Below, piece after piece: positions 8,864 to 64,000 of a DNA stretch of 64,000 nucleotides; the first letter of the stretch is position 1, and every line of letters begins with the position of its first letter. Under the pieces are notes generated by a model that worked only from the letters and a program-made list of their open reading frames with translations, was not told the origin of the DNA and made no database searches. Origin of the DNA: Caldisericia bacterium (GTDB lineage: Bacteria > Caldisericota > Caldisericia > UBA6126); contig DAOSES010000007.1 in the NCBI GenBank assembly GCA_035363255.1, positions 2,723 through 66,722 of the forward strand, given 5' to 3'. The position numbers and the translations under genes were made by a program.

Positions 8864-8870
8864 GCTTGAG

Positions 8871-24074: not shown

Positions 24075-24557
24075 TTAAAGTTTATATCCGATATCCCTTA
24101 GAAAAGATTTTCGTTGTTTTTTTTGGTCTTCATTTTCAATGCCCTGGGGTGAAAAGCCATCAATAACCCCAAGGATGCCTTTGCCTTGATCGCTTTGTGC
24201 TATTATGACCTGTAGCGGATTGGCAGTGGCACAATAGATACGACAAACTTCAGGTATCGCCTTGATAGCATTGAGCACCTGGATGGGAAAAGCTTTATCA
24301 AGGAATATGATAAAGCTGTGCCCCGCGGATAATAGTTGAGCGTTTTCCTCTGCAAGATCGATTAATTCCTGCTTGTTTCCAGAAGATCGTATAAGGCATG
24401 GTCCAGAGGCTTCACAAAAACTCAAACCAAACTCAATCCCGCTGGAGGATTGCACCAAAGCTTCGTGCAAATCCTCGACGGTTTTAATAAAATGAGCTTG
24501 TCCAAGAATTAGATTGTATGCATTGGGATTGTGGATAGGTATTAGCTCAAATTTCAT
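24075..24557 (-). CDS. adenosine-specific kinase-like small protein (COG1839-type)
   Basis: LILGQAHFIKTVEDLHEAL...FCEASGPCLIRSSGN...AGHSFIIFL...CATANP...GILGVIDG pattern recalled for this family. The family assignment is from memory only. Confidence 0.6.
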   Translation of the reverse strand: MKFELIPIHNPNAYNLILGQAHFIKTVEDLHEALVQSSSGIEFGLSFCEASGPCLIRSSGNKQELIDLAEENAQLLSAGHSFIIFLDKAFPIQVLNAIKAIPEVCRIYCATANPLQVIIAQSDQGKGILGVIDGFSPQGIENEDQKKQRKSFLRDIGYKL

Positions 24558-27772: not shown

Positions 27773-27799
27773 TAAAAACTCCTCCAAAAACAAACAAAA

Positions 27800-34646: not shown

Positions 34647-34648
34647 TT

Positions 34649-46248: not shown

Positions 46249-49200
46249 TTAACTTTTTATTGTAATCTCCCGAAGCTCTGCATTCCAGTCTAATTTTGCT
46301 CCAAAGGTTTCACTGATAAAACGTAAAGGCACAAAAGTGCGTCCTGACGTGATTTCTGGGGGAGCGTCGAGTTTTTGTTGAGTTTCTCCCATTTTACCTT
46401 CTTCACGAATAAAGACATCAACTGAGCCAATCACCATACGAATAACAAAACGATCTTTCTGAATGGTGATTTGTCTAAGATTGCCATCCCAGTCGACCTT
46501 GGCTCCGAGTGCTTCACTAATAAAGCGAATAGGAACCATGGTACGTCCATTTTTGATATAGGGTGGAGCATCAAGCGTCTTGTCTTGATGGTTGACTTGT
46601 GCAAGATTGGAGCCAATACGGAGTTTTATCAGAGTAATAAGACTGACTTCCAGGTAAATGGCAGTGGTGTTACTTGCTTTATCGATCGCAATGACTTCTA
46701 TTGAGTTGAAGCCATGGAGAAGCTCATACTCGTAAGAGAATTTACCTTCTTCATCAATTACAACATCTTGAGTATCAATAGTCAAGACAGCACCAGCTTC
46801 AGTTTTTCCTTCAATTAAAACAAGTTTTTGAGTTACCTCTTCGGGGATGGGTTTGATATCAAGTTTTGGTGCCAGTGTGTCTAGCGTAACCAAGCGCATG
46901 ATTTCAGTTTCGAGACCTTTACGATTGGTAGCTTTGAGTTGAATCAGGTTTTGCCCTTCCTCTAAGACCATCGGAAACACAAAAGAACCATTCTTTTCAA
47001 CAGTGATCGGTTTGTCGTTTATAATCAAGCTAGCAGTAGGATCGGTAATGCCCGAAACTTCCAACTCTTTTTTGTTGGTGAGAAAGTTATCTGGAGGATA
47101 AGCAAGTTCAAGCTGAGGAGGAAGAGCATCAGGATTACGCTTGACTCCAAAAACCAAACGCTGGCTATGACTTAGCTTAGCTCCTGCAGCGATCAATTCA
47201 ATAGAAATATCTTTATCCTGGGTTTCAGGTTTAACCGAAATCGTAAGGATGGAATCAAAAGGAACCTTGCCACTGGAAGGCTGAAAATCAGCACTAGCAA
47301 TATCTGAAGGCAAATCTTTGATACTGAGTTTGACATCTTCCTCAAAATAGGGATCGGGAGTAAGAGAAATTTTATAAGATATGCTTTCGCCAGCCATGAT
47401 TTCCTGCTCAGCTAAAGCTTCGACAGATAGGTTGAAATTGGGAGGACGAGATTCAACAATTTCAATACGACTCGATAGGCTTTGTGAAATTCTGGATCGA
47501 ACTGAAAACGCGGTAATGGTAAAAAGTTGTTCGGATTTTGGCTCTGCGTTGGCAGGAATATTGGTTTTAATATCTATTTTAGCGGATTCATAGGGTTTCA
47601 AGGTAAATTTGCCATTCCCAGAGGCATCATTTTCTTTTCCATTGACGAAAACTTTAAACAACCATTTATCTTGAGATTTGTTTAACACGCTAATATCAAA
47701 CACTTCTGAGCGAGTACCCGTATTGACCAGGTAACTACTTACAGTAGATTCTTCGCCTTTGGTCCGTTTTTGGTTTAAGCTATGATCAGAAATTAGATTA
47801 AAAGACGCATTGTTGATGATTTTAACAGGTACTTCAGCAGTTTGAAGCACAGTTTTGGTAACATTGTCCTGTACAAAAACAACCAAACTCATGCGTGAAA
47901 GATTATAGATATCCAGGATGGTATAATCAACTTCAAGGGTGTAAACGTCCCCTTTTCTTCCAAAATTCTCTCCATTGGTCAACTTCATTGGAGTTCCCAA
48001 ATAGTCATGTTTGTCGTCATTTGTAGGCGTCAACATATCTCTAACTACAAAATGGTGTAGTTTATCTCCGTTGATTGCATCAAAGGGAATGTCGGTTTCT
48101 GTAAGAGCAAAATAAATACGAGGATCACGAAAAGGAACATTATCTAAAGCAGTTATTGTGGCCGAAGCTCTTCCGTTTTTGGCAGATGAATCGTAAAAGT
48201 TTTGCACCCCAATGCTTATAATAGAGGGTTGTTTAAGTTTTTCCATTACTTTGGTTCGATAGGCATTGTACATTGTTCGAGCTTTACCTTCTTCTGTGCG
48301 TGTATCATCGCTATTGGGTAAACCTTTAAGATAGTCAGTGCCATCAAAATATATAGTAGGGAGACCTTGATCAGACTGATACCACTTCATACGAGCTTCA
48401 CTATCAATAGAAGTAAGTCTTGGAGAGGGTTCATCCTTGCCTTGAGATTGAACATAGTACTCTAGCCAAACAACCTTTTCTGAACCTAACTCATAATGAA
48501 GACGATTCATAGCAGTATGGGAATGAACACAATTGATACACCAAATTGCAGTAAAGAGCTCTCCTAAGACAGTATGAGGCACCAAATCAAGTTTTTGCTT
48601 GTAAATAAAAGTGGAGCTTGCTCGTCTTTTTTGGCCCCCACTGGCTGCCTGAGTCTCGATTTCGATTTCATAGCTTCCTGCTTCAATCATACGAGAGGTG
48701 GGATTTAATTTTAAAAAGGTGGTGTTGCGTTCGGAGAGATTGATGGAAGGGGGATCAAAAGTGGGGGTGGTGTTGCGTGGAAGACCAAGCGCAACAAAAG
48801 AAACAACACCATTGAAGCCGTTCTGTGGAACCACTTTGACAGGGATGAGAAATTCTTCATCAGCAGAAGCTACAAACAAGGGTTGGAGCTCAGTGTAAAA
48901 GTCTGGAGCAGAATCAGCTCTGAATTGAAGTGATATTTGCTGGGAAACACTGGTATCGCTTCCTGTTTCTACTTCAACGGTAACTTGTGCGCTGTAATCT
49001 TTACCTTGTTCGAGTTTTTCGCCATGAATGGTTACTTTAACTTCCTGAGAGGGAGCATGGAAGCTGGTTGGTTCGATGCTAACAGAAGGATTATCAGCTT
49101 TTATGGTACCTTTGAGCATATTACCACTTTGATTGTGGATAAGAAAGGATCTTTCGACTTTAGTGTCAGACTTGACTGATCCAAAATCAAGATAAGAGGG

Positions 49201-51069
49201 AGTCAGGTGCAACATTTGGGTACCAAAGATATCTGTCATTGGAACAGACAGTACTCTTCGATTGAAGGTATCAGTCACAATCACGCTATGTTTAAAAACG
49301 GTAATATCTTGAGGATAAAGAAATGAGCTTTTCAAAAGTTTCGGATTGTAGTCAAAAATCTCATTTCCTCTAATAATACTGGATTCTTTAACTTGGGTTA
49401 AAGAACCAAACTTGCCAAAAACCTGGGTTTGCTGAGTCATCATATCAGTAACTTGAATACGATTATTGAGCGTGTCTGCAACATAGACCTTGTTGGAAGC
49501 GTCTACATACAAGCCTTTAGGCCCGTAGTAGCTACCGATTTCAAGGCCACGTTTCCCTATTTTGTAAAGAAACTTGCCTTCGTAATCAAACATTTGTATT
49601 CGATTGTTTCCAGAGTCGGTAACATATATGACTTGGTTTCGTACTGATATGCTGGATAAAACCATAAACTGACCATCATTGGAGCCAAGGGTACCAAAAT
49701 GGTGAACGTATTTGCCTTCCATGTCCAAAATTTGGATACGTGAATTGCCTGCATCTGCAACAAATATTTTGTTGTCAGCAATGGCAAGATCGACAGGAAT
49801 GGTCATCTCTCCAGGCTCACTGCCAGGTTTGCCAAATTTCTTCTCGAAACGACCTTCAGTACTAAAAACTGCAATAAATGAGCTCTCAGAATCGAGTGCA
49901 TATAGCTTTGAATTGGCATACTCAATGGCTTGTATTTGCTTAAAATTTGCTTTTGCCATTTCTTCGGAAGGAAAAACACTGGCAAAGGCGCCACCATCTT
50001 TAAATGATTGAATGTTTTGTTGGACTGCATCCAAAACATAGATTCGATCTTCTGAAGCAGTAACGGAAACAGGCTTTACAAAACGACCGTTAGTCTCTTC
50101 TTCTACACCAAAATAACCATAAAAACGCCCATTTTTTTCAAATACAAAGACTCTATTGGCTAGCTGGTCGGAGACGATAATCCTGTTTTCGAGGCTGGTT
50201 ACATCATAGGGGCTTTTTAGTCCGTCGTAGGTGATTTGCCCTTGATAAACTCCAGCAGTACTAAAGGTTTGAATTCTGCGGTTGAGAGAGTCTACTACGT
50301 AGAGAGTAGCATCATCAATCATAAGGCCCTTGGGTTGATTAAAAGCCTTTTCTTCTGTACCAAACCAGCCAAAATTGGAGAGATAATTGCCATCGTGATC
50401 AAAAATCTGGATTCGATGATTTCTTGTGTCGGAAACAAAAACTCTATCTTCAGAAACGGCCAGCCCAAGAGGATGATTGAATTCGCCATCCCCTTTGCCA
50501 GAGCGACCAAAGGTGGATAGATACTTTCCATTCAAATCAAACATTTGGACACGGTTGTTGCCAGTATCGAGTACAAAAAGCTTTTGTCCAAAGAGAGCGA
50601 TGTCGGTAGGGAATACCAATTCGCCTTCCTTGCTTCCGAAAGAACCAAATTGCGACTTGAAGTCGCCTTGAGAGCTTATGATCTGAACTCGGGAGTTGGC
50701 TGAATCGACAATATAAAGGTTTTGGGGAGTAGAACAAACACCAGCAATACCATCAAACTCTTTTTCGTTTTGGCCGTATCCACCGAAAGCAAGCTGGAAG
50801 ACATTGCCTCTAATGAAAGCTTGTAAACGATTGTTTTTGCTGTCAGCTACATAAACTCGTTGTTGTTCTACATTGAGATAGGTGGGTTGACTGAAAACAC
50901 CTTTTTGGAAACCACCAAGACCTATCATTGAGGTTTTAGCGGTATAGTCTACTTCTTCAATTGAAGAGCCCCCCGATGCAATGACAAAGGGTCTGTTGAG
51001 CATAAAAACACTGCCCACAAGACAAAGGCTAAGCAAAACTGAAACCCACTTAAATTGTCTATTTTTCAT
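46249..51069 (-). CDS. giant secreted NHL-repeat protein with Ig-like modules, an embedded thioredoxin-like CxxC module and two C-terminal CuAO-N-type repeats
   Basis: Signal peptide. About a dozen NHL units (NNRVQMFDLNGKYLSTFG, NHRIQIFDHDGNYLSNFG, ...). WCINC module. C-terminal APPYIKNGRTMVPIRFISEALGAKVDW and APPEITSGRTFVPLRFISETFGAKLDW. Confidence 0.85.
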   Translation of the reverse strand: MKNRQFKWVSVLLSLCLVGSVFMLNRPFVIASGGSSIEEVDYTAKTSMIGLGGFQKGVFSQPTYLNVEQQRVYVADSKNNRLQAFIRGNVFQLAFGGYGQNEKEFDGIAGVCSTPQNLYIVDSANSRVQIISSQGDFKSQFGSFGSKEGELVFPTDIALFGQKLFVLDTGNNRVQMFDLNGKYLSTFGRSGKGDGEFNHPLGLAVSEDRVFVSDTRNHRIQIFDHDGNYLSNFGWFGTEEKAFNQPKGLMIDDATLYVVDSLNRRIQTFSTAGVYQGQITYDGLKSPYDVTSLENRIIVSDQLANRVFVFEKNGRFYGYFGVEEETNGRFVKPVSVTASEDRIYVLDAVQQNIQSFKDGGAFASVFPSEEMAKANFKQIQAIEYANSKLYALDSESSFIAVFSTEGRFEKKFGKPGSEPGEMTIPVDLAIADNKIFVADAGNSRIQILDMEGKYVHHFGTLGSNDGQFMVLSSISVRNQVIYVTDSGNNRIQMFDYEGKFLYKIGKRGLEIGSYYGPKGLYVDASNKVYVADTLNNRIQVTDMMTQQTQVFGKFGSLTQVKESSIIRGNEIFDYNPKLLKSSFLYPQDITVFKHSVIVTDTFNRRVLSVPMTDIFGTQMLHLTPSYLDFGSVKSDTKVERSFLIHNQSGNMLKGTIKADNPSVSIEPTSFHAPSQEVKVTIHGEKLEQGKDYSAQVTVEVETGSDTSVSQQISLQFRADSAPDFYTELQPLFVASADEEFLIPVKVVPQNGFNGVVSFVALGLPRNTTPTFDPPSINLSERNTTFLKLNPTSRMIEAGSYEIEIETQAASGGQKRRASSTFIYKQKLDLVPHTVLGELFTAIWCINCVHSHTAMNRLHYELGSEKVVWLEYYVQSQGKDEPSPRLTSIDSEARMKWYQSDQGLPTIYFDGTDYLKGLPNSDDTRTEEGKARTMYNAYRTKVMEKLKQPSIISIGVQNFYDSSAKNGRASATITALDNVPFRDPRIYFALTETDIPFDAINGDKLHHFVVRDMLTPTNDDKHDYLGTPMKLTNGENFGRKGDVYTLEVDYTILDIYNLSRMSLVVFVQDNVTKTVLQTAEVPVKIINNASFNLISDHSLNQKRTKGEESTVSSYLVNTGTRSEVFDISVLNKSQDKWLFKVFVNGKENDASGNGKFTLKPYESAKIDIKTNIPANAEPKSEQLFTITAFSVRSRISQSLSSRIEIVESRPPNFNLSVEALAEQEIMAGESISYKISLTPDPYFEEDVKLSIKDLPSDIASADFQPSSGKVPFDSILTISVKPETQDKDISIELIAAGAKLSHSQRLVFGVKRNPDALPPQLELAYPPDNFLTNKKELEVSGITDPTASLIINDKPITVEKNGSFVFPMVLEEGQNLIQLKATNRKGLETEIMRLVTLDTLAPKLDIKPIPEEVTQKLVLIEGKTEAGAVLTIDTQDVVIDEEGKFSYEYELLHGFNSIEVIAIDKASNTTAIYLEVSLITLIKLRIGSNLAQVNHQDKTLDAPPYIKNGRTMVPIRFISEALGAKVDWDGNLRQITIQKDRFVIRMVIGSVDVFIREEGKMGETQQKLDAPPEITSGRTFVPLRFISETFGAKLDWNAELREITIKS

Positions 51070-51114
51070 TGTTCAACTCCTAACCAGACCAGGGGGTCTG
51101 AAATTAAAATCGGC

Positions 51115-51996
51115 TTACTTTTTGTTGTTTTCACTTGGGAAATCAACACTCACAGTTTGAGAAGAGGCTTCCCATCCAACTTTAGCTCCTAAAAACTCGG
51201 ACACATAACGAACTGGGACAAAAGTGCGTCCCTGGACAATTACTGGGGCTACATCGAGAGGTATAGTCTTGGTATATTTTGGTCCAATATTGATCCTGGC
51301 TTCTTTTTTGTCTACCCAGAAATAAAGCGTCATATCGCCCAAAATGTAGCTTACACGTCGGGTAGCATTATCCCAAGCAATCTGGGCATTTAGTGCTTCG
51401 CCAATAAAACGGAGTGGAACCATAGTGCGTCCACTGGTGATAAAGGGAGGAACATCGAGGGGAACATTTTTGGTTTCTTTGCTTCCAGCAACGGAGGCTT
51501 GCTTGGAATTAATCTGCATTTTAACCAATTTCTTTTCAACCACTATCGAATAGACACTAACAGTTTCTTTGAGTTTGGTGTCTGAAGTGGGCCAGATTTC
51601 GATTGTAACTTTTGCTTTATCGCCTATTTTTGCAGTATCCATGGGATGCATGGTAATGTGCATTTCTTCATTACGATTGGGTTGAACTCTATTTGGTGAT
51701 TCCCCTTCGTCCAAAAAACAGATATTTGAATAGCAAAATTGAGTAAACCAATCTGCATCTTGAGGACCCTTAGGAAACTTTTTTTCTGTGATTTTAGCAA
51801 ATAGAGTAGACACTCTGCGAGTATTATTTGTGAAATAAAAATAAGCTGCGCCAGCTATACCAGGGGTAACGGGCAGAAAAAAATCAGATTCACTAGCTGC
51901 ACTTTGATTGGACAAACCCTGGGTAGAGCTAAACAAAGTCGCAGATACCATGAGTAAGCAAACTAAAAACAAACTAAAAAATTTACGCATTTCCAT
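51115..51996 (-). CDS. secreted protein with two CuAO-N-type repeats
   Basis: Signal peptide. VPPFITSGRTMVPLRFIGEALNAQIAW and VAPVIVQGRTFVPVRYVSEFLGAKVGW. Confidence 0.8.
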   Translation of the reverse strand: MEMRKFFSLFLVCLLMVSATLFSSTQGLSNQSAASESDFFLPVTPGIAGAAYFYFTNNTRRVSTLFAKITEKKFPKGPQDADWFTQFCYSNICFLDEGESPNRVQPNRNEEMHITMHPMDTAKIGDKAKVTIEIWPTSDTKLKETVSVYSIVVEKKLVKMQINSKQASVAGSKETKNVPLDVPPFITSGRTMVPLRFIGEALNAQIAWDNATRRVSYILGDMTLYFWVDKKEARINIGPKYTKTIPLDVAPVIVQGRTFVPVRYVSEFLGAKVGWEASSQTVSVDFPSENNKK

Positions 51997-52044
51997 TCAC
52001 ACTCCTCAACTAAAATTCTGAATGAATCTAATTTATATGCACTA

Positions 52045-52084
52045 ACCCATCGGTTAAACCTTGATCAAGGTTTAACCGATGGGT
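52045..52084. repeat. perfect 40-nt palindrome (18-bp stem, GATC centre) in the intergenic region
   Basis: ACCCATCGGTTAAACCTTGATCAAGGTTTAACCGATGGGT, read directly. No U-run follows on the minus strand. Confidence 0.95.
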
Positions 52085-52144
52085 CCTCGTCACTACGAAG
52101 CTATACACAAAATACAAGGCAAGGCAAGACTTGGTTCAAGTATT

Positions 52145-55100
52145 TTACTTAACCCGTAAAATAATTTCACCCTTTTTAAACCTTCCGTTGGAATCCTTGG
52201 CTTGTATAAGTACTCGATATATTCCAGCTTTTTGGTAGGTATGCTTAAGCACAACTTCATTGCTATCCAGAGCTTGGTCGTTTAAGACAGTGCCATCGCT
52301 CCAATTCCAAGTGAAGGTATAATTGCCTGATCCACCTTCGATTTTGAAACGAACACGAACTTCGGAATTAAGACTTATTGTGCCATCAGGGTTGAGATTT
52401 TCCACATAGGCTCTGAAGTATAGTGGATTTTCAGCTCCAGGGCAAGGGTGAAGCATGGTATAGAAGGGGAAGCTTTCACTGTAATTGGGATCGGATATAA
52501 AAGTTAGGCGATTTTCGAGGAGTGTTGAGGATGAAACTTGAATAGCAGTCTTGCTTAAGCGAGCGTAAATAACTAGATAATGACCATCATTATCGCTAAA
52601 ACCTGGATATCCTATGGAGTTGCAATCTCTGGAAGGCCAGCAGTCACCAGGGCGAGAGTTCAATGGTTCATTTAAATCGTAGAGATCGATCTTGAGGATT
52701 CCATCCGTGAAATATCCTGAGGGCTCAGAAGAAATAAGCTCAAGATTGGGATCAAGACGAACTTCTATACGATTGCGGGAAAGCTTTTCATTTCCAATGT
52801 TTTTAATTTGAATACGATACTTTACAACAACATTGCTACTATCGTTTTCTTTGCATGGAGCCTGAACAGAATCAGGGAAAGATCTACGGTAAACTTCGAC
52901 TTTATGCTGTGAGATTCTTGGTAATACTTCAAGCCGGAAAACAATTTTACGCTCTATATATTTTCCAGATGGAAGCTCTGCAGAACCAACAATAGATACG
53001 TCATAGATACCGTCAGGAGTCGTTTTCTCGGTTTTGATGGTCAGTATGGATCTGTATTCGTGGATAACACTGCTACTGGTAGGATTGGGGTCCATCGTAT
53101 AAGTAGTATTTGGGGGAAGACCCATAACTTCAAAGTCTACTTGTTCATTGAACTCGAAACGGGGTTGAACTGTCACTTGGGTATAAGTACTCTCGTCCTG
53201 ATAGATAGTAGCATGGTTGGGACGTAAAGAGAGATTGAAGATAGGCTCCTGGATAAGATCCATATTAAAGTTGGCATAGTTACCGAGTAATACGATTTCT
53301 GCCCGACTTTCTTCTCGAAGCTCTGAAATCACTGTCATGGGATAGGAACTCAATGGCGTATCGTCGGAAGTGTTGACTCGTATCATGATGGAAGCCGACA
53401 TACCAGCTGACAAATACACTCGATTGCTGGGGTAAAAATCATAAAAAATACCAACATTGGAGGGATCACCGAATCCACCACCAAACTGGAGGGGTTTCAG
53501 CTCTACCCAACCACGGGCACCATTGAGAGATTTAAGGTTAGCTTGATAGTTGGTGGAGTCACCTTGCACGACCACACGGTTGAAAGGTACTACCTCAAGA
53601 GAATAAGAGGGTATAACTGGCTCAGGATCAGGTCCAGGATCTTCAAAACTACCCGATGCGACTAAAGCAAAGGGCTGACGACCCGTTGCTGGTTCACCCT
53701 GGGGAACGGATAGAGCAACAACTTCCACTTGATACATACCTGTTTCTGGATCGGCGATGAAAACTCCCTCAACATTGTTAAGGTCGTCAGCAATAACAGC
53801 TGGGGTAATAGAAACACCATTGTTATTAAAATGATTACCACGATATACGTTTCCAAGAGGGTCGCGCACCACAAGATTCAAGTCGTTAACCAAAGCTTTG
53901 GAAGCTCCAGGAGTGCCAGGAGCATCAGTATATACCAGGTTGACTTTAAGAGGTTTGGTTGAATCGTATACTTCGATATTAACAGAATAAGTGTCACCAG
54001 TCATTAATCCATTGGTGCCAGTAACATCCCAGTAATTGATGCCAGGCTCGGTAGATTTTTCAACATCCACGCGACCCCATCCTAATGCAGAATTGGGGCA
54101 TGAAACAGGCTGATTGTTTTGGTTGACTAGTCCATTGGACTTAGCTCCATGGATTAATAAAGCTTTAAGTAAGGCAGCAGAAACATTTCCATATTTTTGT
54201 CGCAATAAAGCAAGAGAACCAGAGGTAACAGGAGTAGCCATGGATGTACCACTCTTGTTAGTGTAAGCATTGGGATCGACAGTAGAACGAACTTGTTGTC
54301 CTGGAGCTACAATATCTGGTTTGATTCTGCCGTCGCCAGCAGGACCTCTTACAGAAAAAGAAGCAAGTTTGTCTGGATTCAAGCCAGCTTTATTGTTTTC
54401 AGTTGCACCAACTACAATATTGTTTTTTGCGTTTGCCTGATATCCAAAAGAATAGACACCTGTCTGATAATTACCTGAAGCGAATAGTATTGAAAAGTCT
54501 TTTCGTTCCCATAGAAATGTATCCATAACCACGGCATCAGATGCATAGGTGTTTGAATTTGCGTTACCCCAACTGTTGCTATGAATACGAGCCCCAGAAT
54601 TATAAGCAAGATTAAAGTACTCAATTAGGCTATGGTTTGGACCAGCTGGTGGTAAATTTTGAGGAGGACCACTACTAAAGTACATTTTTTGAATAACCAG
54701 ATTTGCTTTATAAGCCATTCCTCTATATTGCTGATTATCTGGATCGTTGCCTGCAATAGTCCCTGCTACATGGGTACCATGGAGGTTCCCATGGGCTCCA
54801 CTGTCAGACCAATTGCTATCTGCTGAATGATGAGCAACGATTTTGCCAGGATCCTTAAAAGCATTGTGAAGCGTAAGTTCATCTCCAGTAGATAGTCCAG
54901 AGTCAAGCACAGCCACAATTTGTCCTTCTCCTGTAAGCCCTAACTGTTTGTCGTTGTGAAGATTGTCACGAATATTGACTACCTGCGCAGCTTCAGCATT
55001 AAACAATTTTGCTTCAGCTTTTTGGGTGATACTAATAATCTTTGAATTAAGAGAATAAGCTCCCAAACGATTGGTATGTTGGGATTTAAGCTCAAGAAAC

Positions 55101-55804: not shown

Positions 55805-55985
55805 TCTTAATACTCTCCTTTTCAAAAAGAGATTAGCTACCATAAACCCAACAAATTTTTTACAATCACGACTTAAATATATAAAATATCCATGCCCAAA
55901 GTCAAGCATCCAGCAAAACCATTTTCATTTTTGGCCTATTTTTTGCTTTACTGCTATAAAATGAGGTGAGAAATCTTGCAATACC

Positions 55986-56014
55986 TTGATATTTACTATA
56001 TTAAACAATATAAT
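55986..56014 (+). promoter_or_regulatory. candidate promoter of the SpoIID-domain/PQQ-propeller operon
   Basis: TTGATA at 55986-55991, 17-nt spacer, TATAAT at 56009-56014. Confidence 0.5.
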
Positions 56015-56093
56015 TATGCATGAATAGTAAGGATTTTCAACCTGCCAACCGTAGAATTACCATTTGATGCGGGTGGAAGTTAGGGAGGAAAAG

Positions 56094-59090
56094 ATGAGTA
56101 CGCTGCTTCAAAAAAAACTAGCGTGGCTTTTCTTGTTATTTTTTGTTACATTTTTATCTACACCATCTTTTCCTGCAAGTGCATCCAATCCCAGATCAGA
56201 TGAATTTAAAATCAAAGTTCTCTTGTCCAGCAAAAAATCTCCCATTGAATTGAGCAATAACAGCAAACAATGGCTAATATCCCCATCAAGCTCTCCCTAC
56301 ACAAACCTAACCCTACATTCTGCTCAATTGATATTCGATATACTGGGTAATCCAAATCAAACCATTCTTTTTTCAAGATCAAATTCATCGTGGAGCTGGG
56401 ATCAAGCTTTAAACCAAGTACAAGCATTGAAGTCCTGTCTTAAAGGTAGTGGCTTAAAAGTATTCATAGGCATTTCCGACAATAATCAATTTTTTCTTGA
56501 TATTGGTCCTTTTGAAAAAAATAAGGATGCAGCTTTTATTTGTAGTCTCCTTCAATCCTCCGGACATCTTTTTACAGTACAAGATAGCACCACTGGTCAA
56601 GCTTGTATCTCTATTGGTTTTCAAGAAAACTCATTTCATCTTAAGTCTGATTATTTCGTCTTAAATCAAGACAAAGTCCCAGTTTGGGAGATATCCACTC
56701 CCAGCAACGAAACTATCAATTTTGCCTCTCGTACATATCCTGAAAAATTAATCCTTGCATATTCTCCCTCCCAAAGCTTATTGCTTGTCAACGAATTATC
56801 AATCGAAGAATACCTTAGAAGTGTAGTTCCAGCAGAAATGCCAAACAATTGGCACCTAGAAGCTTTAAAAGCTCAGGCAGTAGCTAGCAGGTCTTTTGCG
56901 CTTTCACGTGTCCTTCAAGCCAGAAAAGTGAAAGCTCTATATGATGTGACTGACGATACCTACACCCAGGTTTATCTTGGATGTAGGTACTTTCCATCAA
57001 GTGACAATGCAGTAAAAGCAAGTAGAAACGAAGTTCTTGTCTTTAATAATCAAGTAATTGAGAGTGTCTTCCACTCTACCAGCGGAGGGCACACTGAAAA
57101 TAATGAACTAGTTTGGTCAGGAGGAGCAAGACCCTATCTCCGAGGGGTTGTTTCTGAAGGAGAGGAGGGATCTCCTCACTTTACATGGTACAAAAGTATC
57201 AAACAAGAGCAATTTCTCATCGAAATAAACAAATACCTTTCTTCTGAAGGACGCCCTGAACGTCTTTCATCCCTTGAGTCCTTAACTATCACTGAAACTG
57301 GGGCTTCACCACGAGTTCGAAAAGTTTCACTCCATCACCAAAAAGGGGCTATCGAACTCAGTGGTTCTGAATTCCAAGCTATTTTTTCATTGAAAAGCAC
57401 CTGGTTTAATATTTTGATATGGAAAGACGATTATTCCTCTGCCTGGTGGAAAGACTATATGAATCCTGAAAACAAAGACTCCACAACTCTTTATATCTTT
57501 GGAAGAGGATGGGGTCATGGGGTTGGAATGTCCCAATATGGAGCTGGAGCTCAAGCCAGAAAAGGTTTAAATTATCATCAAATCCTTCAACATTACTTCC
57601 AGGGAAGCCAAATTGATCAAATGTCTCCTTACCTCCCAGCATCCCAAAACTCTTCGAGCATAAATGGTTCCTATTCCCCCTATTCTTCAAGTTGTCACCT
57701 AAGCTTTTCCCCATCAGTTATCAATAATGAGCTTCATGAGCAATGGAAGCTTGAATTACTTATATCATCAAGTAGTAGTATGCAGGGTTTTTCCCTGGAC
57801 CTGGTATTTGACCCCAACCATTTAGACATTAATGAAAACGACATCAGTGAAGGAACTTTTTTAAATGCAGGCGATAAAACTACCCTGTTTCTCAAGAAAA
57901 AAGAAAACAACAAGATTCATATTGGTTTGGCTCGTGAGGGTAAAGCTGGAGGAGTGGTCGGTGAAGGAGTATTACTAATCATCGAAGGTAGGGCTCTAAA
58001 AGAGGGCAGTAGCGAGATACAACTCCAACAACTCCATGTATTCAACAGCCAACTGGAAGAGATTGAAGCCAGCTCAGACAAGGCTCTGATTGTTGTTAAC
58101 AAAAAAGACCTTATCCCACCCAAAACCCTAATCATTGAATACCCTCCTCGGTTTAACAATCAGGCTTTTGTAACTTTCCGCTGGATAGGAAGTGACAATG
58201 AGAGTAAAATTGAAAACCTTTTCTATTCTTATCGCATCAATGAAGAAGCCTGGTCAATTTTTTCCAAGGATACCTTATACACATTTCATTTAAGCAATGA
58301 CGGAGCCTATGTCTTTTCTGTGAGAGCAAAAGATGAAGCCAATCTTATCGATCCCTCCCCTCCAGTCTATACCTTTTATATTGACACCAAGCCCCCTTTG
58401 CTTGAGTTGGATCCCTTTCCCAATCCCACCACCAAATCAGAAATATTGATCAAAGGAAAAACCGAAGCTGACGTTACTCTCCTGGTTAATGCCATAAAGT
58501 ACCCAGTATCTTCCTTGGGCAATTTTGAATGCCTTATTCCCTTAAAAAATGGAGACAATTTAATTCGCTTCATCGCTATCGATGAAGCATCAAATACCAG
58601 CACCCAAGACCTTCTTATCACTCGTAATCCCTTTCCTTCTGTGGAAATTTCTCTCAGCATAGGTAGTCGCAAGGCTATGGTCAATAAAGAAATCAAAACC
58701 TTGGAAATAGCACCATTTATAGAACAAAACAGGACTTTTGTACCCTTACGCTTTATTGCAGAATCTTTTCAATCCAAAGTTGACTGGTTCCCAACAGAAA
58801 AAAGGATTCTCATTTCTCTGGATCACCCCCTGGTTCAAAAGAACATTACCCTTTGGCTTGGTTCAAAAACAGCCTTGATTGACGGAGAAAAAGTTCCTCT
58901 CGATGTTCCCCCTTTGCTAAAACCTCCTGGAATTACCTTTGTACCTATACGTTTTATTGCTGAGAGTTTTGGCTCAAAAGTTGAGTGGTTTCCTCAAACC
59001 CAAAGCATAAACATAATTTTTCCTGACCCGGAAAAATTCAACAAGCATGATCAAAGTCTGAGAAAGTTGGTGATTACTCATGAAAAATAG
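56094..59090 (+). CDS. secreted SpoIID/LytB-domain protein with a cohesin-like module, Ig-like modules and two CuAO-N-type repeats
   Basis: GGGAGG lies before ATG 56094. SpoIID motifs (VVPAEMPNNWHLEALKAQAVASRSFAL, FHSTSGGHTENN, GRGWGHGVGMSQYGA). Cohesin-like FSLDLVFDPNHLDI. FVPLRFIAESFQSKVDW and FVPIRFIAESFGSKVEW. Confidence 0.85.
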   Translation: MSTLLQKKLAWLFLLFFVTFLSTPSFPASASNPRSDEFKIKVLLSSKKSPIELSNNSKQWLISPSSSPYTNLTLHSAQLIFDILGNPNQTILFSRSNSSWSWDQALNQVQALKSCLKGSGLKVFIGISDNNQFFLDIGPFEKNKDAAFICSLLQSSGHLFTVQDSTTGQACISIGFQENSFHLKSDYFVLNQDKVPVWEISTPSNETINFASRTYPEKLILAYSPSQSLLLVNELSIEEYLRSVVPAEMPNNWHLEALKAQAVASRSFALSRVLQARKVKALYDVTDDTYTQVYLGCRYFPSSDNAVKASRNEVLVFNNQVIESVFHSTSGGHTENNELVWSGGARPYLRGVVSEGEEGSPHFTWYKSIKQEQFLIEINKYLSSEGRPERLSSLESLTITETGASPRVRKVSLHHQKGAIELSGSEFQAIFSLKSTWFNILIWKDDYSSAWWKDYMNPENKDSTTLYIFGRGWGHGVGMSQYGAGAQARKGLNYHQILQHYFQGSQIDQMSPYLPASQNSSSINGSYSPYSSSCHLSFSPSVINNELHEQWKLELLISSSSSMQGFSLDLVFDPNHLDINENDISEGTFLNAGDKTTLFLKKKENNKIHIGLAREGKAGGVVGEGVLLIIEGRALKEGSSEIQLQQLHVFNSQLEEIEASSDKALIVVNKKDLIPPKTLIIEYPPRFNNQAFVTFRWIGSDNESKIENLFYSYRINEEAWSIFSKDTLYTFHLSNDGAYVFSVRAKDEANLIDPSPPVYTFYIDTKPPLLELDPFPNPTTKSEILIKGKTEADVTLLVNAIKYPVSSLGNFECLIPLKNGDNLIRFIAIDEASNTSTQDLLITRNPFPSVEISLSIGSRKAMVNKEIKTLEIAPFIEQNRTFVPLRFIAESFQSKVDWFPTEKRILISLDHPLVQKNITLWLGSKTALIDGEKVPLDVPPLLKPPGITFVPIRFIAESFGSKVEWFPQTQSINIIFPDPEKFNKHDQSLRKLVITHEK
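57690..58108 (+). other. cohesin-like module
   Basis: WKLELLISSSSSMQGFSLDLVFDPNHLDINENDISEGTFL...IHIGLAREGKAGGVVGEGVLLIIEGRALKEGSSEIQL. The FxLxYDPxxL-type cohesin pattern; not HMM-verified. Confidence 0.55.
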
Positions 59091-62000
59091 ATTCATATCT
59101 TTGATACTAAGTGTAATGCTGCTATTGCCTTTTCCTTATCTTCGCGCGTCGGCCGAACAAACTCCAACTCAACATTGGCCAATGTTCCGACAAAATGAAT
59201 CAGGAACTGGGGAAAGCAGTGTCTCGCTGAAAACAGACTCAATGCTGGAACAATGGAGATTCCAAACTGGAAGTTCAATCTCTTGCTCCCCCGTTGTTAG
59301 CCAGGGCACCACATACGTTTTATCCGACAACCGAAAACTATATGCCCTGGAAACAGAAAGTGGCCAAAAAAGATGGGAGAGCGAAGAATTTATCAATTAC
59401 CCCCTCCCTCTGGGTGCCCCAACCGTTAGCAATGACAGAATATACTTTCTTACTGGAGGAGCTTCAGACAGACCTTCTTACCTCTACTGCTACTCCACTG
59501 AAGGGTATCGTTTATGGAATTTTGCTGCCTTTGGCCAGTTTAGCAGTCATTCCCCCTTGGTATATGGCAACAAAATCTTTGCTGGTGCTTCTACTGATAT
59601 CCTTTATTGCATCAATGCAGGAGGCAATCAAATATGGCAAAAAGCACTAAACTCTCCGATTTTAAGCACTCCAGTTTTAGGTGCTAACAGAGTATTTACT
59701 GTAAGCTCCAAAGGTAGGGTATATGCTTTTGACTACGAAAGTCTTGCCGACCTATTTGAAGTTGACCTGCCATTTAATAGTCCGAGTGAATGTAAATCAT
59801 CTCCTGTATTCTATGATGGGGTACTGTATATTGCCTCAAAGTCAATCAACAACAAAGGTGAAATCTTCGCCATCAATGCCTACACTGGTGAAATTATTTG
59901 GCGATCAGGACCTTTAGCAAACTTTGTTTCTTCCTTGACCGCCAACACTAACTTCCTTTTCATTGGATCAGAAGATCACGTTTTGTATGCCATTGGAAGA
60001 GCTGATGGCAAGGTAAAATGGAAATATTCCTCTCGAGGTCGTATTTTATCTACTCCAGCTATAAGTGAAGATAAAGTTTTCTCTGCTTCAGCTGATGGCA
60101 ACATTTATGCTCTAGATTTTAAAGGAGAGCTTCAATGGAAGTATGCCCTTGGAGGAGAAATTATCACCTCCCCCGCTATCAGCAACAACAAACTGACCAT
60201 TACCCAATCCAACAACGTGGTTACCTTTGCAGATAACATCGATTTCTCCATTTCTGCCCTACCCTCAGAACTTAGTTTATACCAGGGCGAAGAAACGAAT
60301 ATAGCTTTACAGATCCAATCTTCAGGTAGTATTTCTCAAAATGTGTTTCTTCGTACAGACAGTGTACCTTTGGGTTTTGAAGCAATCATCAGCCCCAATA
60401 TTCTGAAACTTTCAGAGGGTCGCGGTAATGCTTCCTTAAAGCTGAAAAGCAACAAAGAAACCAAACCGGGAACTCACACTTTTTTCGTTATTGCTGAAAC
60501 TGCAGGTCGGAGCAGGAAGGTCAGAATCACTGTAGAGATACTGAAAATTTCAGAGGGTAGTTTTTACATTCAGATGACCCCACAAACAGCTGAAGTCAAT
60601 GCGGGTAATGCTGTGGTATACCAAGTTGAAGTTGGAAGCAGGGATCAATTCAGAGGTAGTGTGCAACTATCCGTTTTATCCCCCCCCTCAGGATTTCAAT
60701 GCACTTTTCAGGAAGCTCGTTTAGAAGTGCCAGGAATAACCAACTTAGTAGTGTTTGTCGATATCACTGTAGATCCAGACAGATACTCCCTTACCGTGGA
60801 GGGCTTGGGAGGTGGAAGAAGAGAGCTAAGTCGTGCATCCCTGGTTGTTCAGGGCACCAAGAGATTTGATTGGCCTGGTTTTGGAAACTCAAACCAACTC
60901 ACCAATTACACCAAAGAAGCTGTTTCTCATGCTCTTGAAACCAGATATATTTTTCAAGCAGAGGGCGCGATTCGTAGTCAAGCCGCCATCGTCGGTGACA
61001 CCGCCTACTTTACCTCAGAAATTCCTCGAGCCTCAAAACATCATGCCACCAAACTATATGCCATAGACATACGATCTGGTGAATTAAAATGGGACTACTT
61101 CCTTGGTATTTCATCCAAAACACTTCCAGATATCGGAGAAGAAGGTCCTGACGATCCTCCTCCCTGGATTTCCTCTCCAAGAATTCACGGTAACAAGTTA
61201 TTTGTTGGAACTCTTGATGGCTTGTTGTTTTGTATTGACATCACCTCTGGCCGACCCATTTGGTTTAGAAATGTTGGCTCAAGTATCCGTTCCTCTCCCT
61301 CTATCGGAGACGATAAAGTATACTTTGGCACTGAAAACAATCGCGTATTTGCGCTTGACATCGAATCAGGTGAACAACGTTGGATGACTGAGTTAAAAGG
61401 CCCTGTTCATTCCAGTCCAGCCTTTTACAACAACCGAGTATATGTCAGTTCATATGATAATCACTTACACTGTCTATCATCCACCAATGGTTTGATCTTC
61501 TGGTCATTCAATGGGTTTAGATCGAGCTTCAAAGCTTCTCCTTCGGTCGGTGAACAAGGTATCTATATTGGAGGAGCAGGCGAGAATAAATACTTTTATC
61601 GCGTAAATCATAATGGATCTGCCAAATGGCAAATTCTTACTGCCGCAGAAATACCTTCCACCGCTGCTTTAGATGAAAATGACCAAACTATCTACTATTT
61701 AAATGTTGCCCAACAAGCTAACATACAATTATCTGAACTCACCCGTTTAAACACAGAAAGCAAGGAAAAAATCTGGGGATATGCAGCGGGTGGGGGCGTG
61801 ATCTCAAGCTCTCCAGTAGTCGCTGACGACAAGATATTGTTTGGTGGTTTGGACAAAGCTTTTAATATTGTTGGCAAAGATGGGCGATTGATCTTCAAAC
61901 AAGTTCTTGATGCGCCCATACAGGGGAGTCCTTCGGTGGGAAGAGGGGTAGTACTTGTAGGAACAAATAGTGGTAAGCTTTATGCTTTCACTTCGAGCAT

Positions 62001-63849
62001 CATGTTTACGCTCATCCCCGAAAAACAGTTAGTAAACCTATTTCAAGGAGAATCCACTGATATCAATATAAACATCCTAGCAGACTCACCTCTTAAAGCT
62101 CCTGTAAAGTTATCAGCAGACAACCTTCCTACAGGGGCTTCGGTAGAATTTCTTCCTCCAGAAGTCAACCAATTTCCAGGTTCAACTATCATGCGCATCA
62201 AACTAAATCCACATACGCCCATTGGTAAATATCCCATCACAATCCTTGGCACCAGCGGAACTTATCGAAGAACCACAAGCATAGAACTCAGAGTACAGAA
62301 TCTTGCTCCAGGAAAGTTTTCACTAAAAACAGCAAGTACTGAAAAAGAAATCAATGCTGGTTCAGCCATTAAGGCAGAGATCTTTGCAGAGCCTTCAGGT
62401 GGATTCAATGCTCCCGTAAGTTTTTCTGTAGTGAGTGAACTACCCGACCATATTCAGGCACTTTTCAATCCAAAAACTATAAGCCTTCCGGGTTCCACTA
62501 CACTTAGCATTCAAGTTCCTGCTACAGCCAATCCACAAAAATTTGAGATGACTGTTCGAGGTGACGGAGGAGGCAAACAGGAAAACTTAGTCTTCTCAGT
62601 GTCGGTATTTGAAAACATGACAGGTGATTTTTCTATTCGAGTCACACCTATATCAAAAACGATTTATACTGGAGAAAATGCTGAATATGAAGTTATTGCT
62701 GAAGGTTGGGATGGATTTAATGAAGCAATAGAACTCGATGTTGAAGGCTTACCCACTTATCTGCAACCCAAGTTCGAAAGCAAAAAACTCCGAAATGGAG
62801 AAAAAACTGTCTTCTCAGTTCTCACAACTCTTGATACTCCAACAGGAAGTTATGCTTTTTCTCTTACTGGTAAAGCACAAAAAACAAGCAAGAAGATCCC
62901 TTTAACCCTCGAAATTATTCAAGAAAAGGGAGATTTTTCTTTCAACTTTCCTCCCAATTTCCTCATCAGCATGACTGCAGGTACACAAAAAGATTTTTCG
63001 TTCCAACCTACCTTCACCGTTAACTGGAATGCTCCAGTCACATTTAGTATCCTAAACTTGCCTTCCAACCTTCAAGCTCAAATCCTTCCCCCCATATTAG
63101 AACCCAAAGCCAGCTCCAAAGAAGTCAAGATTATGTTTACTGCGAGCGAATCGTCTCCTAACGAGACTTACTCACTTTCATTGCAAGGAAGTGGAGGGGG
63201 AAAAACTCGTACTGTTCACTTTAGAGTCCAGGTTTTATCCATTCAAGCAGGCTACCTTTCTTATCAAATCAATCCCACTTTTCCACAGATCAAAAGGAAT
63301 CACGACACTCCCATCGATATAAATATCATGGGAGCGAAAGAAATCAGTTATCTTGAGTTTCGTTTTTCATGGGATCCAATTTTGGCAAGTGTTTCGAGCA
63401 TTCAGCTCAATGCTGCATTGAGCAATCCTTCAGTAGGTGCTACCCTATCAAGCGAAATCAATCAAGAAAAAGGTTTTGCTCTGATCAAAGTAAGTATTCC
63501 AGTGGAGAATTCCATTAGTGGAGATATGCTGTTGATGCAGATATTTATGTCTGGAATCAACAAAGGTGAAATGCTTCTTAAGATCGACGACACCGTTGCT
63601 CGAAACAAGACACTCGATTTAATGCCTTCCAAAGGAACCTCAGTATCCAGTCTTGTCACTCTCTATTTACCTGGAGATGTAAATGGTGACGGGAAAGTTG
63701 ATATTGAAGATTTAGTTTTGTTTGCTCGTGCTTTTGGCACCAAAAAAGGTGATACAAACTATGATGCTCGTGCAGATTTTAATAATGACGGTTTGGTAGA
63801 TGGATTGGATTTGATACTCCTCGCTTACAATTGGGGAGAAAGCCTTTAA
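59080..63849 (+). CDS. giant secreted protein: two PQQ-like beta-propellers, multiple Ig-like modules, and a C-terminal cohesin-like module plus dockerin
   Basis: Signal peptide. WPMFRQNESGTGES and repeated PQQ-like blades (KLYALETESGQKRW, HVLYAIGRADGKVKW, RVFALDIESGEQRW). 11-nt overlap with the upstream gene. Confidence 0.85.
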   Translation: MKNRFISLILSVMLLLPFPYLRASAEQTPTQHWPMFRQNESGTGESSVSLKTDSMLEQWRFQTGSSISCSPVVSQGTTYVLSDNRKLYALETESGQKRWESEEFINYPLPLGAPTVSNDRIYFLTGGASDRPSYLYCYSTEGYRLWNFAAFGQFSSHSPLVYGNKIFAGASTDILYCINAGGNQIWQKALNSPILSTPVLGANRVFTVSSKGRVYAFDYESLADLFEVDLPFNSPSECKSSPVFYDGVLYIASKSINNKGEIFAINAYTGEIIWRSGPLANFVSSLTANTNFLFIGSEDHVLYAIGRADGKVKWKYSSRGRILSTPAISEDKVFSASADGNIYALDFKGELQWKYALGGEIITSPAISNNKLTITQSNNVVTFADNIDFSISALPSELSLYQGEETNIALQIQSSGSISQNVFLRTDSVPLGFEAIISPNILKLSEGRGNASLKLKSNKETKPGTHTFFVIAETAGRSRKVRITVEILKISEGSFYIQMTPQTAEVNAGNAVVYQVEVGSRDQFRGSVQLSVLSPPSGFQCTFQEARLEVPGITNLVVFVDITVDPDRYSLTVEGLGGGRRELSRASLVVQGTKRFDWPGFGNSNQLTNYTKEAVSHALETRYIFQAEGAIRSQAAIVGDTAYFTSEIPRASKHHATKLYAIDIRSGELKWDYFLGISSKTLPDIGEEGPDDPPPWISSPRIHGNKLFVGTLDGLLFCIDITSGRPIWFRNVGSSIRSSPSIGDDKVYFGTENNRVFALDIESGEQRWMTELKGPVHSSPAFYNNRVYVSSYDNHLHCLSSTNGLIFWSFNGFRSSFKASPSVGEQGIYIGGAGENKYFYRVNHNGSAKWQILTAAEIPSTAALDENDQTIYYLNVAQQANIQLSELTRLNTESKEKIWGYAAGGGVISSSPVVADDKILFGGLDKAFNIVGKDGRLIFKQVLDAPIQGSPSVGRGVVLVGTNSGKLYAFTSSIMFTLIPEKQLVNLFQGESTDININILADSPLKAPVKLSADNLPTGASVEFLPPEVNQFPGSTIMRIKLNPHTPIGKYPITILGTSGTYRRTTSIELRVQNLAPGKFSLKTASTEKEINAGSAIKAEIFAEPSGGFNAPVSFSVVSELPDHIQALFNPKTISLPGSTTLSIQVPATANPQKFEMTVRGDGGGKQENLVFSVSVFENMTGDFSIRVTPISKTIYTGENAEYEVIAEGWDGFNEAIELDVEGLPTYLQPKFESKKLRNGEKTVFSVLTTLDTPTGSYAFSLTGKAQKTSKKIPLTLEIIQEKGDFSFNFPPNFLISMTAGTQKDFSFQPTFTVNWNAPVTFSILNLPSNLQAQILPPILEPKASSKEVKIMFTASESSPNETYSLSLQGSGGGKTRTVHFRVQVLSIQAGYLSYQINPTFPQIKRNHDTPIDINIMGAKEISYLEFRFSWDPILASVSSIQLNAALSNPSVGATLSSEINQEKGFALIKVSIPVENSISGDMLLMQIFMSGINKGEMLLKIDDTVARNKTLDLMPSKGTSVSSLVTLYLPGDVNGDGKVDIEDLVLFARAFGTKKGDTNYDARADFNNDGLVDGLDLILLAYNWGESL
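63247..63663 (+). other. cohesin-like module
   Basis: ISYLEFRFSWDPILASVSSIQL...GFALIKVSIPVENSISGDMLLMQIFMSGINKGEMLLKI. Pattern-level call only. Confidence 0.5.
63664..63846 (+). other. type I dockerin-like module
   Basis: GDVNGDGKVDIEDLVLFARAFG ... ADFNNDGLVDGLDLILLAYNWG, two canonical calcium-binding repeats. Confidence 0.85.
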
Positions 63850-63861
63850 AAAATAAAAAAA

Positions 63862-63896
63862 CCCTCCCGTTCTAAATGGAACGGGAGGGTTTTTTT
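63862..63896. terminator. bidirectional rho-independent terminator
   Basis: CCCTCCCGTTC-loop-GAACGGGAGGG followed by TTTTTTT and preceded by an A-run. Lies between convergent genes. Confidence 0.85.
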
Positions 63897-63911
63897 ATAC
63901 TCTGTTAAGAT

Positions 63912-64000
63912 CTATTTAGCAGGAAGACTCAATCGTTGTATAGTAACCACTTGATCTTTGGCATCCCATTCCACCAGAGATCCAAAAGCCTCTGCAATAA
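63912..64000 (-). CDS. 3' end of a gene encoding a CuAO-N-type repeat (partial, runs off the window)
   Basis: Minus-strand translation ...IAEAFGSLVEWDAKDQVVTIQRLSLPAK-stop matches the FxAEAFGxxVxWD repeat seen in four other proteins here. Confidence 0.5.
   Translation of the reverse strand, partial: IAEAFGSLVEWDAKDQVVTIQRLSLPAK

Follow-up and report, generated by a model that had tools for sequence, protein, structure and literature searches.

The distal part of a 64,000-nucleotide stretch of a Caldisericia genome (hereafter the window; it is part of a 95-kb metagenome contig) encodes two adjacent genes whose products carry cohesin and dockerin interaction modules. The first codes a SpoIID-domain protein with one cohesin and a pair of PF07833 (CuAO-N-type) repeats, the second a PQQ-type propeller protein that ends in a cohesin followed by a dockerin. 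We favor, with a probability of roughly 55%, a reading in which the first protein is a single-cohesin, presumably wall-bound anchor that tethers the second, the two forming a simple surface-attachment device in a conserved chromosomal envelope locus. A first-pass annotation of this DNA, drawing on Clostridia-like anaerobes for comparison, had described an island of six secreted-protein genes whose products may form a protease-centred scaffold analogous to a cellulosome. The six genes and all domains that it named were recovered with Pfam, and surface attachment through cohesin and dockerin is still the most economical reading of the assembly that it proposed, but the assumption of a Clostridia-like host, the island and the protease-centred scaffold did not stand.

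The Candidate Cohesin Anchor and Its Adjacent Gene

The candidate anchor gene (56094-59090, + strand) encodes a 998-aa protein with a signal-peptide-like N-terminus, a SpoIID/LytB domain, one cohesin (57693-58103, +), an immunoglobulin (Ig)-like domain of the Y_Y_Y type, a Glucodextran_B domain and a tandem PF07833 (Cu_amine_oxidN1) pair (58659-59063, +; 141.5 bits in Pfam). The gene of the PQQ protein (59080-63849, +; 1589 aa, predicted to be secreted) codes two PQQ_2/BamB-like propellers, with Ig-like domains between and after them, a C-terminal cohesin (63256-63672, +) and a type-I-like dockerin (63673-63846, +). Its start overlaps the stop codon of the anchor gene by 11 nt, which suggests translational coupling, and a GGTGA motif is found upstream of this second start.

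Proteins of the window were compared with Pfam and NCBIfam models (cut-offs of 24.1 bits for Cohesin, 22.9 for Dockerin_1, 83.3 for TIGR02669 and 234.75 for TIGR02870). Cohesin and dockerin hidden Markov models (HMMs) built here were also run on all stop-to-stop open reading frames (ORFs) of at least 70 aa in the six frames of the window and the next 10 kb (74 kb), genes past the window end being read in locus L007 of the same contig. Two S8 proteases located upstream enter the account at this point: S8a (21359-24043, −), with a C-terminal Dockerin_1 match at aa ~834-887, and S8b (24584-27793, −), which has a PA domain and a C-terminal cohesin-dockerin tandem. The six-frame scan placed cohesins only in the SpoIID-cohesin, PQQ and S8b proteins, and dockerins only in the PQQ, S8a and S8b proteins. 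The SpoIID-cohesin protein is thus the sole cohesin carrier lacking its own dockerin, and it is a PF07833 protein, exactly as the first-pass annotation had it; the dockerins that it assigned to the PQQ protein and to both S8 proteases at 21-28 kb were likewise found by Pfam.

Identity of the Cohesin and Dockerin Modules

The earlier proposal had been made conditional beforehand on its cohesin-like regions being cohesins by profile or structure. A nine-stranded jelly-roll beta-sandwich was taken as the defining fold. AlphaFold2 (AF2) models of single chains were compared with the PDB by Foldseek, all figures below referring to the 50 matches listed per model. The SpoIID-protein module is predicted to be all-beta with a mean predicted local distance difference test (pLDDT) score of 90.8, and its 50 listed matches are all cohesins, with query-normalized template modelling (TM) scores of 0.62-0.79. 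The best is the non-cellulosomal cohesin 2xdh of Archaeoglobus fulgidus (0.75), and the OlpC cohesin 4dh2 is among the top listed matches (E=1.5e-10, TM 0.73). The cohesin and dockerin of the PQQ protein, modelled together, reached a pLDDT of 89.3; 49 of the 50 matches listed for this module are cohesins or cohesin-like proteins, with target-normalized TM scores of ~0.8 for single modules.

Sequence comparison gives this assignment strong but indirect support, at an identity to known cohesins of 10-18%. A single-sequence phmmer search of the PDB with the SpoIID-protein cohesin returned noise only, and a profile of orthologs was required. Of 20 full-length orthologs collected, all of which retain the module, 18 entered this profile (A1). 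It matches 2xdh at E=5.9e-4, it contains an invariant R-x-G-x-x-GGV-x-G-x-G motif, and it retrieves proteins that Pfam scores as Cohesin at up to 8e-46. The PQQ-protein cohesin itself gives no Pfam Cohesin match, its ortholog in locus L020 scores 31.5 bits (over the cut-off), and its profile aligns with the SpoIID-type profile at a hhalign probability of 98.6% (E=9e-16) and with cohesins 4uyp, 1aoh and 2xdh at E=0.003-0.008. Judged by these profiles and predicted folds, the modules of the SpoIID and PQQ proteins are true cohesins. The S8b module remains sub-threshold in Pfam (about 20.2-22.1 bits); the S8b tandem aligns over the PQQ cohesin-dockerin profile at 98.8% (E=4e-17). With S8a only the dockerin part aligns, the module preceding it not being recognized as a cohesin by hhalign.

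Type I dockerins (PF00404) were defined by an above-threshold profile score and a duplicated F-hand calcium loop with D or N at positions 1, 3, 5, 9 and 12. The three dockerins of the window score 37.0 (PQQ), 35.0 (S8a) and 28.5 (S8b) bits in Pfam and are assigned to this type. The one of the PQQ protein has two intact calcium-binding repeats, DVNGDGKVDIED and DFNNDGLVDGLD, whose loops are largely invariant among orthologs with all calcium ligands kept, and the best PDB match of its profile is dockerin 2y3n_B (E=9.6e-15). It is present in the 14 full-length PQQ-protein orthologs and is the most conserved part of the protein, its mean pairwise identity being 74%, compared with 62-67% in the propellers and 41% in the cohesin beside it.

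The Invariant Two-Gene Core

Loci were fetched and compared with the window proteins by tblastn. A cohesin-anchor gene followed by a propeller-cohesin-dockerin gene, a few bases apart or overlapping, is present in every locus with enough sequence. The two genes adjoin or overlap each other in the window itself and in L009, L011, L013, L014, L015, L018 and L029. They are neighbors in the deep branches L020 and L025 too, at an identity of only ~24% in the propeller core. L020 carries a minimal version (1288-5844, +). Its first gene codes a protein of 482 aa made up of a signal peptide, a cohesin, Y_Y_Y/Big Ig domains, Glucodextran_B and two PF07833 repeats, without a SpoIID domain, and the gene upstream is unrelated. 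Its second gene, 3 nt on, codes a 1036-aa single-propeller protein ending in cohesin and dockerin. Because the pair persists there without SpoIID, the conserved element is the cohesin with its anchor and not the enzyme. In L025 the SpoIID and cohesin-anchor portions occupy two distinct ORFs, after which the propeller-cohesin-dockerin gene again follows.

L025 also encodes an S8-PA protease (6053-9031, +), ~32% identical to S8b of the window, that ends in Glucodextran_B and PF07833 in place of the cohesin-dockerin tandem. PF07833 and cohesin-dockerin therefore appear, from their architecture, to be interchangeable C-terminal attachment devices. Two further Caldisericota proteins of ~1580 aa (L055 5630-10372, +; L051 3247-7968, −) have a cohesin-like module just before the PF07833 pair and a partial dockerin-like match, so that anchored cohesins may number more than one in such genomes.

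A Conserved Chromosomal Locus of Caldisericota

When one genome per species was scanned, orthologs turned up almost exclusively in Caldisericota/Caldisericia metagenome-assembled genomes (MAGs). Several PQQ-protein orthologs are labelled Caldisericia at NCBI, and all orthologous loci belong to Caldisericota; the host is thus not Clostridia-like. On one side of the core lie the genes of an NHL protein (46249-51069, −; 1606 aa), of a 293-aa secreted protein (51115-51996, −) and of an S8/PKD protease (52145-55909, −). On the other side the window holds the 3′ end (63912-64000, −) of the gene coding a 2233-aa secreted protein (full gene at L007 14833-21534). The block at 46249-64000 thus comprises five full-length genes plus the end of a further one, with N-termini that are signal-peptide-like by eye (that of S8/PKD only from Met36). 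The order NHL, 293-aa, S8/PKD (all −), SpoIID-cohesin, PQQ (both +), 2233-aa (−) recurs, with protein identities of 35-70%, in at least 10 Caldisericota MAGs, either whole or as overlapping parts (L008-L011, L014, L017, L018, L027, L029), and fragments of it in L012, L013, L015, L016, L019 and L028. In L031 the genes past the 2233-aa gene are retained too.

The GC content of the cluster genes is flat, 0.395-0.419 against 0.413 for the window, and their neighbors are housekeeping genes (two class A penicillin-binding proteins, GltX, Tmk, HolB, DXS, NAD kinase, RecN, HflX). NAD kinase and RecN lie near the cluster, on the same side, both in the window and in the deep-branching L025. Pfam scans of the window proteins revealed no integrase, transposase or tRNA boundary. 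Given flat GC, lack of visible mobility genes and phylum-wide synteny, the island of the first-pass annotation was rejected in the sense of a horizontally acquired block. The clustering is not due to chance either, since no ORF of the first 46 kb carries PF07833 (HMM scan) and the same order recurs in many distant genomes.

The two class A penicillin-binding protein genes are in tandem, slightly overlapping (29750-34658, −), each pairing transglycosylase with transpeptidase; from their presence it follows that the organism makes peptidoglycan. At the other end, ~7-11 kb past position 64000, L007 21579-24770 (ortholog at L031 3-4334) includes the gene of an exosortase/archaeosortase-family protein of 179 aa. 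It scores 83.3 bits with XrtH (cut-off 86) and 64 bits with the family signature TIGR04178 (cut-off 23). Its gene adjoins those of a polytopic membrane protein of 157 aa and of an fn3 protein of 1301 aa, its candidate substrate, whose C-terminus consists of KTPSFDTWG, a transmembrane helix and KRKR (KTPFLDIWG, helix and RKK in the L031 ortholog). By these signatures it looks like a dedicated exosortase-type sorting system beyond the window end, in a phylum in which no BamA or lipopolysaccharide (LPS) genes were found. The earlier statement that no sortase signal is visible is correct inside the window but not ~7 kb past its end.

SpoIID Domain, Propellers and PF07833 Repeats

The SpoIID domain of the anchor protein reaches 221.9 bits with TIGR02669 in NCBIfam, against a cut-off of 83.3, and belongs to the SpoIID/LytB family (TIGR02669 / PF08486). 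The Glu of its PAEMP motif aligns with the sEM / gEM motif of solved SpoIID structures and with E101, the catalytic Glu of Clostridioides difficile SpoIID (PMC6221140), and it is invariant (E257 in the alignment) in 15 orthologs. Given a score well above the cut-off and the conserved catalytic Glu, the anchor protein of this genome is probably also a peptidoglycan lytic transglycosylase. It resembles the SpoIID/LytB lytic transglycosylases of Bacillus anthracis (4rwr) and C. difficile (5i1t, 5txu), with domain matches of E=3e-27 to 3e-23, and differs from them in that the domain is part of a predicted 998-aa surface protein carrying a cohesin and PF07833, and in that one lineage does without it. 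A role as sporulation gene was rejected, the domain scoring 175.5 bits with the sporulation equivalog TIGR02870, under the cut-off of 234.75. On these scores the public label “stage II sporulation protein D” of anchor-protein orthologs is an over-annotation. No SpoIIP-like amidase partner was seen near the gene.

The name PQQ protein refers to its repeats. The best stretch of the protein matching PF01011 covers only positions 48-99 of the 595 of this profile, and the strong matches in Pfam are instead to cofactor-less PQQ_2/BamB-like and ACSF4-type propellers; the protein was therefore not classed as a PQQ-dependent dehydrogenase, for which a match over the full length of the quinoprotein dehydrogenase propeller was required. 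The JGI label “BamB” of PQQ-protein orthologs is, by the same matches, a repeat-level annotation. Such misleading public labels (P0003, P0004, P0357, P0359, others) are given in a phylum of which the cultured member, C. exile, lacks a detectable BamA.

PF07833 repeats were recognized by Pfam and in translation on the four proteins for which they had been claimed (NHL, 293-aa, SpoIID-cohesin and the partial 3′ gene). Their profile matches are strong (116-177 bits). Of the 124 ORFs that bear them in the fetched Caldisericota loci, 120 have them at the very C-terminus and 116 have exactly two copies, in a sample biased by the similarity used to choose it. This stereotyped C-terminal pair seems to be a general surface tag of Caldisericota. 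The surfaceome of Desulfotomaculum reducens included PF07833 proteins (PMC4137172), and in a 2026 preprint on Paenibacillus PF07833 is taken as a predicted module for wall binding, with no binding result given for it in the passages found here.

Proposed Attachment Mechanism and Its Alternatives

In the mechanism that we favor, the Ig-like domains and the two PF07833 repeats would hold the anchor protein on peptidoglycan or on a surface lattice, where it would display one free cohesin. The calcium-dependent dockerin of the PQQ protein would plug into this cohesin and so tether the propeller protein to the cell surface. The PQQ protein’s own cohesin would then be a second docking site, for the two S8 dockerin proteases, for other dockerin proteins or for another PQQ copy. 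The NHL, 293-aa and 2233-aa proteins would attach directly by their own PF07833 pairs, and the S8/PKD protease, which has no anchor, is a candidate for the enzyme that processes the neighboring proteins. The dockerin-bearing proteases would be optional extras, having no conserved genomic link to the cohesin anchor.

Several points weigh against this mechanism. The only line of evidence pairing the PQQ dockerin with the SpoIID-protein cohesin is gene linkage; conservation does not tell which cohesin pairs with this dockerin, because both cohesins are ~41% identical among orthologs. The SpoIID-protein cohesin scores 21.9 bits with Pfam Cohesin (PF00963), just below the cut-off of 24.1. Wall binding by PF07833 is presumed in the literature and was never directly demonstrated, and in a Paenibacillus superoxide dismutase the module is linked to dimerization (PMC10432803). 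The signal peptides were called by eye from N-terminal sequence, and the fetched loci were chosen by similarity to the SpoIID-cohesin protein, so that counts of PF07833 architecture are biased toward its layout. Furthermore, the PQQ protein and S8b each carry their own cohesin, and self-association could be the main or only interaction.

This last possibility is the main rival, which we hold to be unlikely but serious. According to it, cohesin-dockerin tandems are self-contained homo-oligomerization modules that build chains, and the cohesin of the SpoIID protein has its partner elsewhere or none. The tandem does recur on unrelated cores, a PQQ propeller and an S8-PA protease (the 98.8% hhalign match), and it is kept in 14 of 14 PQQ orthologs. 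The window’s three dockerins are not alike at the helix positions by which specificity is usually determined, and each may therefore match its own cohesin. Haimovitz reportedly observed in 2008 that an Archaeoglobus fulgidus cohesin binds the dockerin of the same protein. Self-association leaves unexplained, however, why a dockerin-less PF07833-cohesin gene is kept upstream even at ~24% identity or without SpoIID, and on its own it leaves a secreted protein of 1589 aa with no visible means of retention.

A wall-anchored scaffold displaying several proteases and propellers, the protease-centred cellulosome analogue of the first-pass annotation, is very doubtful. In its favor, a span of 43 kb encodes three proteins with dockerins (two being S8 proteases) and three confirmed cohesins, and a daisy chain is formally possible from the anchor cohesin through the PQQ and S8b tandems to the dockerin of S8a. 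The co-occurrence of cluster and proteases that it proposed to look for was found in one case, an S8b ortholog with dockerin (46% identical) in L073, the same MAG as the cluster copy L011. The dockerin proteases are outside the conserved synteny, 28-35 kb off; S8/PKD, the protease that does belong to the conserved cluster, lacks a dockerin, the L025 homolog bears PF07833 directly, and what is conserved beside the cohesin gene is the gene of the PQQ propeller and not that of a protease. Neither the window nor the next 10 kb contains a multi-cohesin scaffoldin, the free cohesin being a single one and not part of an array.

In other genomes our cohesin profile does match proteins 3-6 times in tandem (P0195-P0204, from a search of 1.84 billion representatives). 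They are the multi-cohesin proteins closest to the SpoIID-protein cohesin. Of nine scanned, five have the Por_Secre_tail of the type IX secretion system (T9SS) and five CarboxypepD_reg, P0198 having the latter without a tail. By their domains they look like non-cellulosomal multi-cohesin scaffoldins of T9SS-using bacteria. They were rejected as scaffoldins of this genome since the tails point to other phyla, which counts further against a scaffold model.

Weakest of all, and highly improbable in our view, is that independent secreted proteins are kept together by regulation or ancestry with cohesins and dockerins as mere spacers or vestiges: non-cellulosomal cohesins and dockerins are indeed widespread with a function unclear from genome presence alone (PMC9012536), and operon structure is deduced here from spacing and from consensus scans not above shuffled expectation, but this view has to face a dockerin that is the most conserved segment of a 1589-aa protein with every calcium ligand kept, a cohesin motif invariant across 18 orthologs and a gene adjacency that survives divergence to ~24% identity.

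The proposed tethering of the PQQ protein by a single-cohesin anchor can be placed in a wider setting. No LPS core genes were found in Caldiserica (PMC5007114). BamA was not found in Caldisericum exile, yet electron microscopy reveals an “outer membrane-like envelope” (PMC4104836), and the phylum is listed among the Terrabacteria lineages retaining SLH/CsaB in a discussion of outer-membrane loss (bioRxiv 10.1101/2021.05.31.446380). It is a speculative and rather improbable idea that the whole supercluster (PF07833 giants, cohesin anchor and propeller, S8 protease, exosortase system) is the core of this envelope. If it were, a proteinaceous outer layer would be fixed to peptidoglycan in two ways, through PF07833 directly and through dockerins plugged into cohesins, and a wall-remodelling lytic transglycosylase would double as docking platform. 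The locus is in any case a first handle on the Caldisericota cell envelope; should the interaction fail, an ordinary cluster of secreted multidomain proteins remains.

Other Genes and Features of the Window

The NHL protein has a signal-peptide-like N-terminus, two NHL-type 6-bladed propellers, Ig-like domains, Big_6 and two Glucodextran_B matches in Pfam, and two C-terminal PF07833 repeats (aa ~1484-1606, 176.7 bits; Pfam and HMM scan). Orthologs were found by tblastn in L008, L009, L017 and L018. A WCINC sequence (WCxxC; aa 843-847, nt 48529-48543, −) lies in a thioredoxin-like region beside a sub-threshold Omp28 (PF11551) match and is kept as WCxxC in seven orthologs or paralogs, which hints at an extracytoplasmic thiol-redox function on this propeller protein. 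In the 293-aa protein an N-terminal domain of ~130 aa without family match precedes the two PF07833 repeats (166.4 bits in Pfam); this domain is found at 40-70% identity beside the S8/PKD gene in 10 fetched loci. The same number of loci have orthologs of the S8/PKD protease, an S8 subtilase with a C-terminal PKD domain in Pfam whose catalytic motifs are legible in translation (VAVLDSG / HGTHVAG / GTSMATP). Pfam and HMM scans detected no PF07833, cohesin or dockerin in it, in agreement with the first-pass annotation as to PF07833 and dockerin. Its true start is probably the ATG at 55804 (Met36), because initiation there yields a signal-peptide-like N-terminus.

The divergent intergenic region between the S8/PKD and SpoIID-cohesin genes (55910-56093) contains sigma-70-like consensus matches. 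The best is TTGATA-17-TATAAT (55986-56014, +), with an opposing match at 56040-56013; the total of promoter-like sites is not above shuffled expectation, and these are consensus matches only. Between the convergent PQQ and 2233-aa genes lies a strong hairpin (63853-63898, listed for the − strand) with a 20-pair stem, eight G-C pairs and flanking A- and T-runs, which by its structure is probably a bidirectional terminator. The translation of the fragment at 63912-64000 ends in IAEAFGSLVEWDAKDQVVTIQRLSLPAK and a stop codon, the end of a PF07833 repeat. The complete 2233-aa protein has Glucodextran_B and a PF07833 pair, both C-terminal, and its gene occupies the same convergent position in 10 loci.

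Between the same-strand genes of S8a and S8b an adenosine-specific kinase gene (PF04008, 247.9 bits; 24075-24557, −) is found, an odd housekeeping insert. At the start of the window (1361-5554, +) a gene codes an RHS-repeat protein of 1397 aa that has DUF6531, and several small ORFs that overlap one another come after it (5511-8863). Domains and gene order are those usually seen where a polymorphic toxin is accompanied by immunity or orphan-tip genes.

Comparison with Known Systems

The cellulosome is defined by a scaffoldin with several cohesins, by dockerin-bearing carbohydrate-active enzymes and by a substrate-binding module. Assessed over the 74 kb, the locus shares with cellulosomes of the CipA/OlpB type and with the Ruminococcus bromii amylosome the same two interaction modules, and a protein having both cohesin and dockerin could bridge others. 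It differs in that there is one cohesin per protein and no cohesin array in the window and the next 10 kb. The scanned window proteins have no glycoside hydrolase, carbohydrate-binding module or SLH domain, which for the first and last of these had already been noticed.

The closest described architecture is that of the cell-surface protein OlpC (Cthe_0452) of Clostridium thermocellum and of its counterpart ScaG of Acetivibrio cellulolyticus, in which one type-I cohesin accompanies a domain annotated as PF07833 (PMC3413522). In view of this precedent, the claim that nothing comparable has been characterized needs qualifying. Like them, the anchor protein is predicted to be secreted and has exactly one type-I-like cohesin, PF07833 and no SLH, so that by its modules it groups with them; the 482-aa form of L020 has essentially their architecture. 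The order of modules is nevertheless reversed, the cohesin preceding the C-terminal PF07833 pair here and following the PF07833-like domain there. Most versions of the anchor are moreover fused to a SpoIID/LytB enzyme, the host is one of the Caldisericota with no cellulosomal enzymes in view, and the linked dockerin protein is a propeller and not a glycoside hydrolase.

The non-cellulosomal proteins of A. fulgidus (2xdh) and of ANME archaea also resemble those of the locus, with cohesin and dockerin on one polypeptide in non-cellulolytic organisms and no large scaffoldin. The A. fulgidus module is the best match, among those listed, of the SpoIID-protein cohesin in both sequence and fold. What distinguishes the Caldisericota locus from them is the conservation across the phylum of adjacent cohesin-only and cohesin-dockerin genes, which nominates a specific partner and an attachment mechanism. 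The locus thus offers a natural, genetically linked cohesin/dockerin pair, conserved phylum-wide down to a minimal enzyme-free form.

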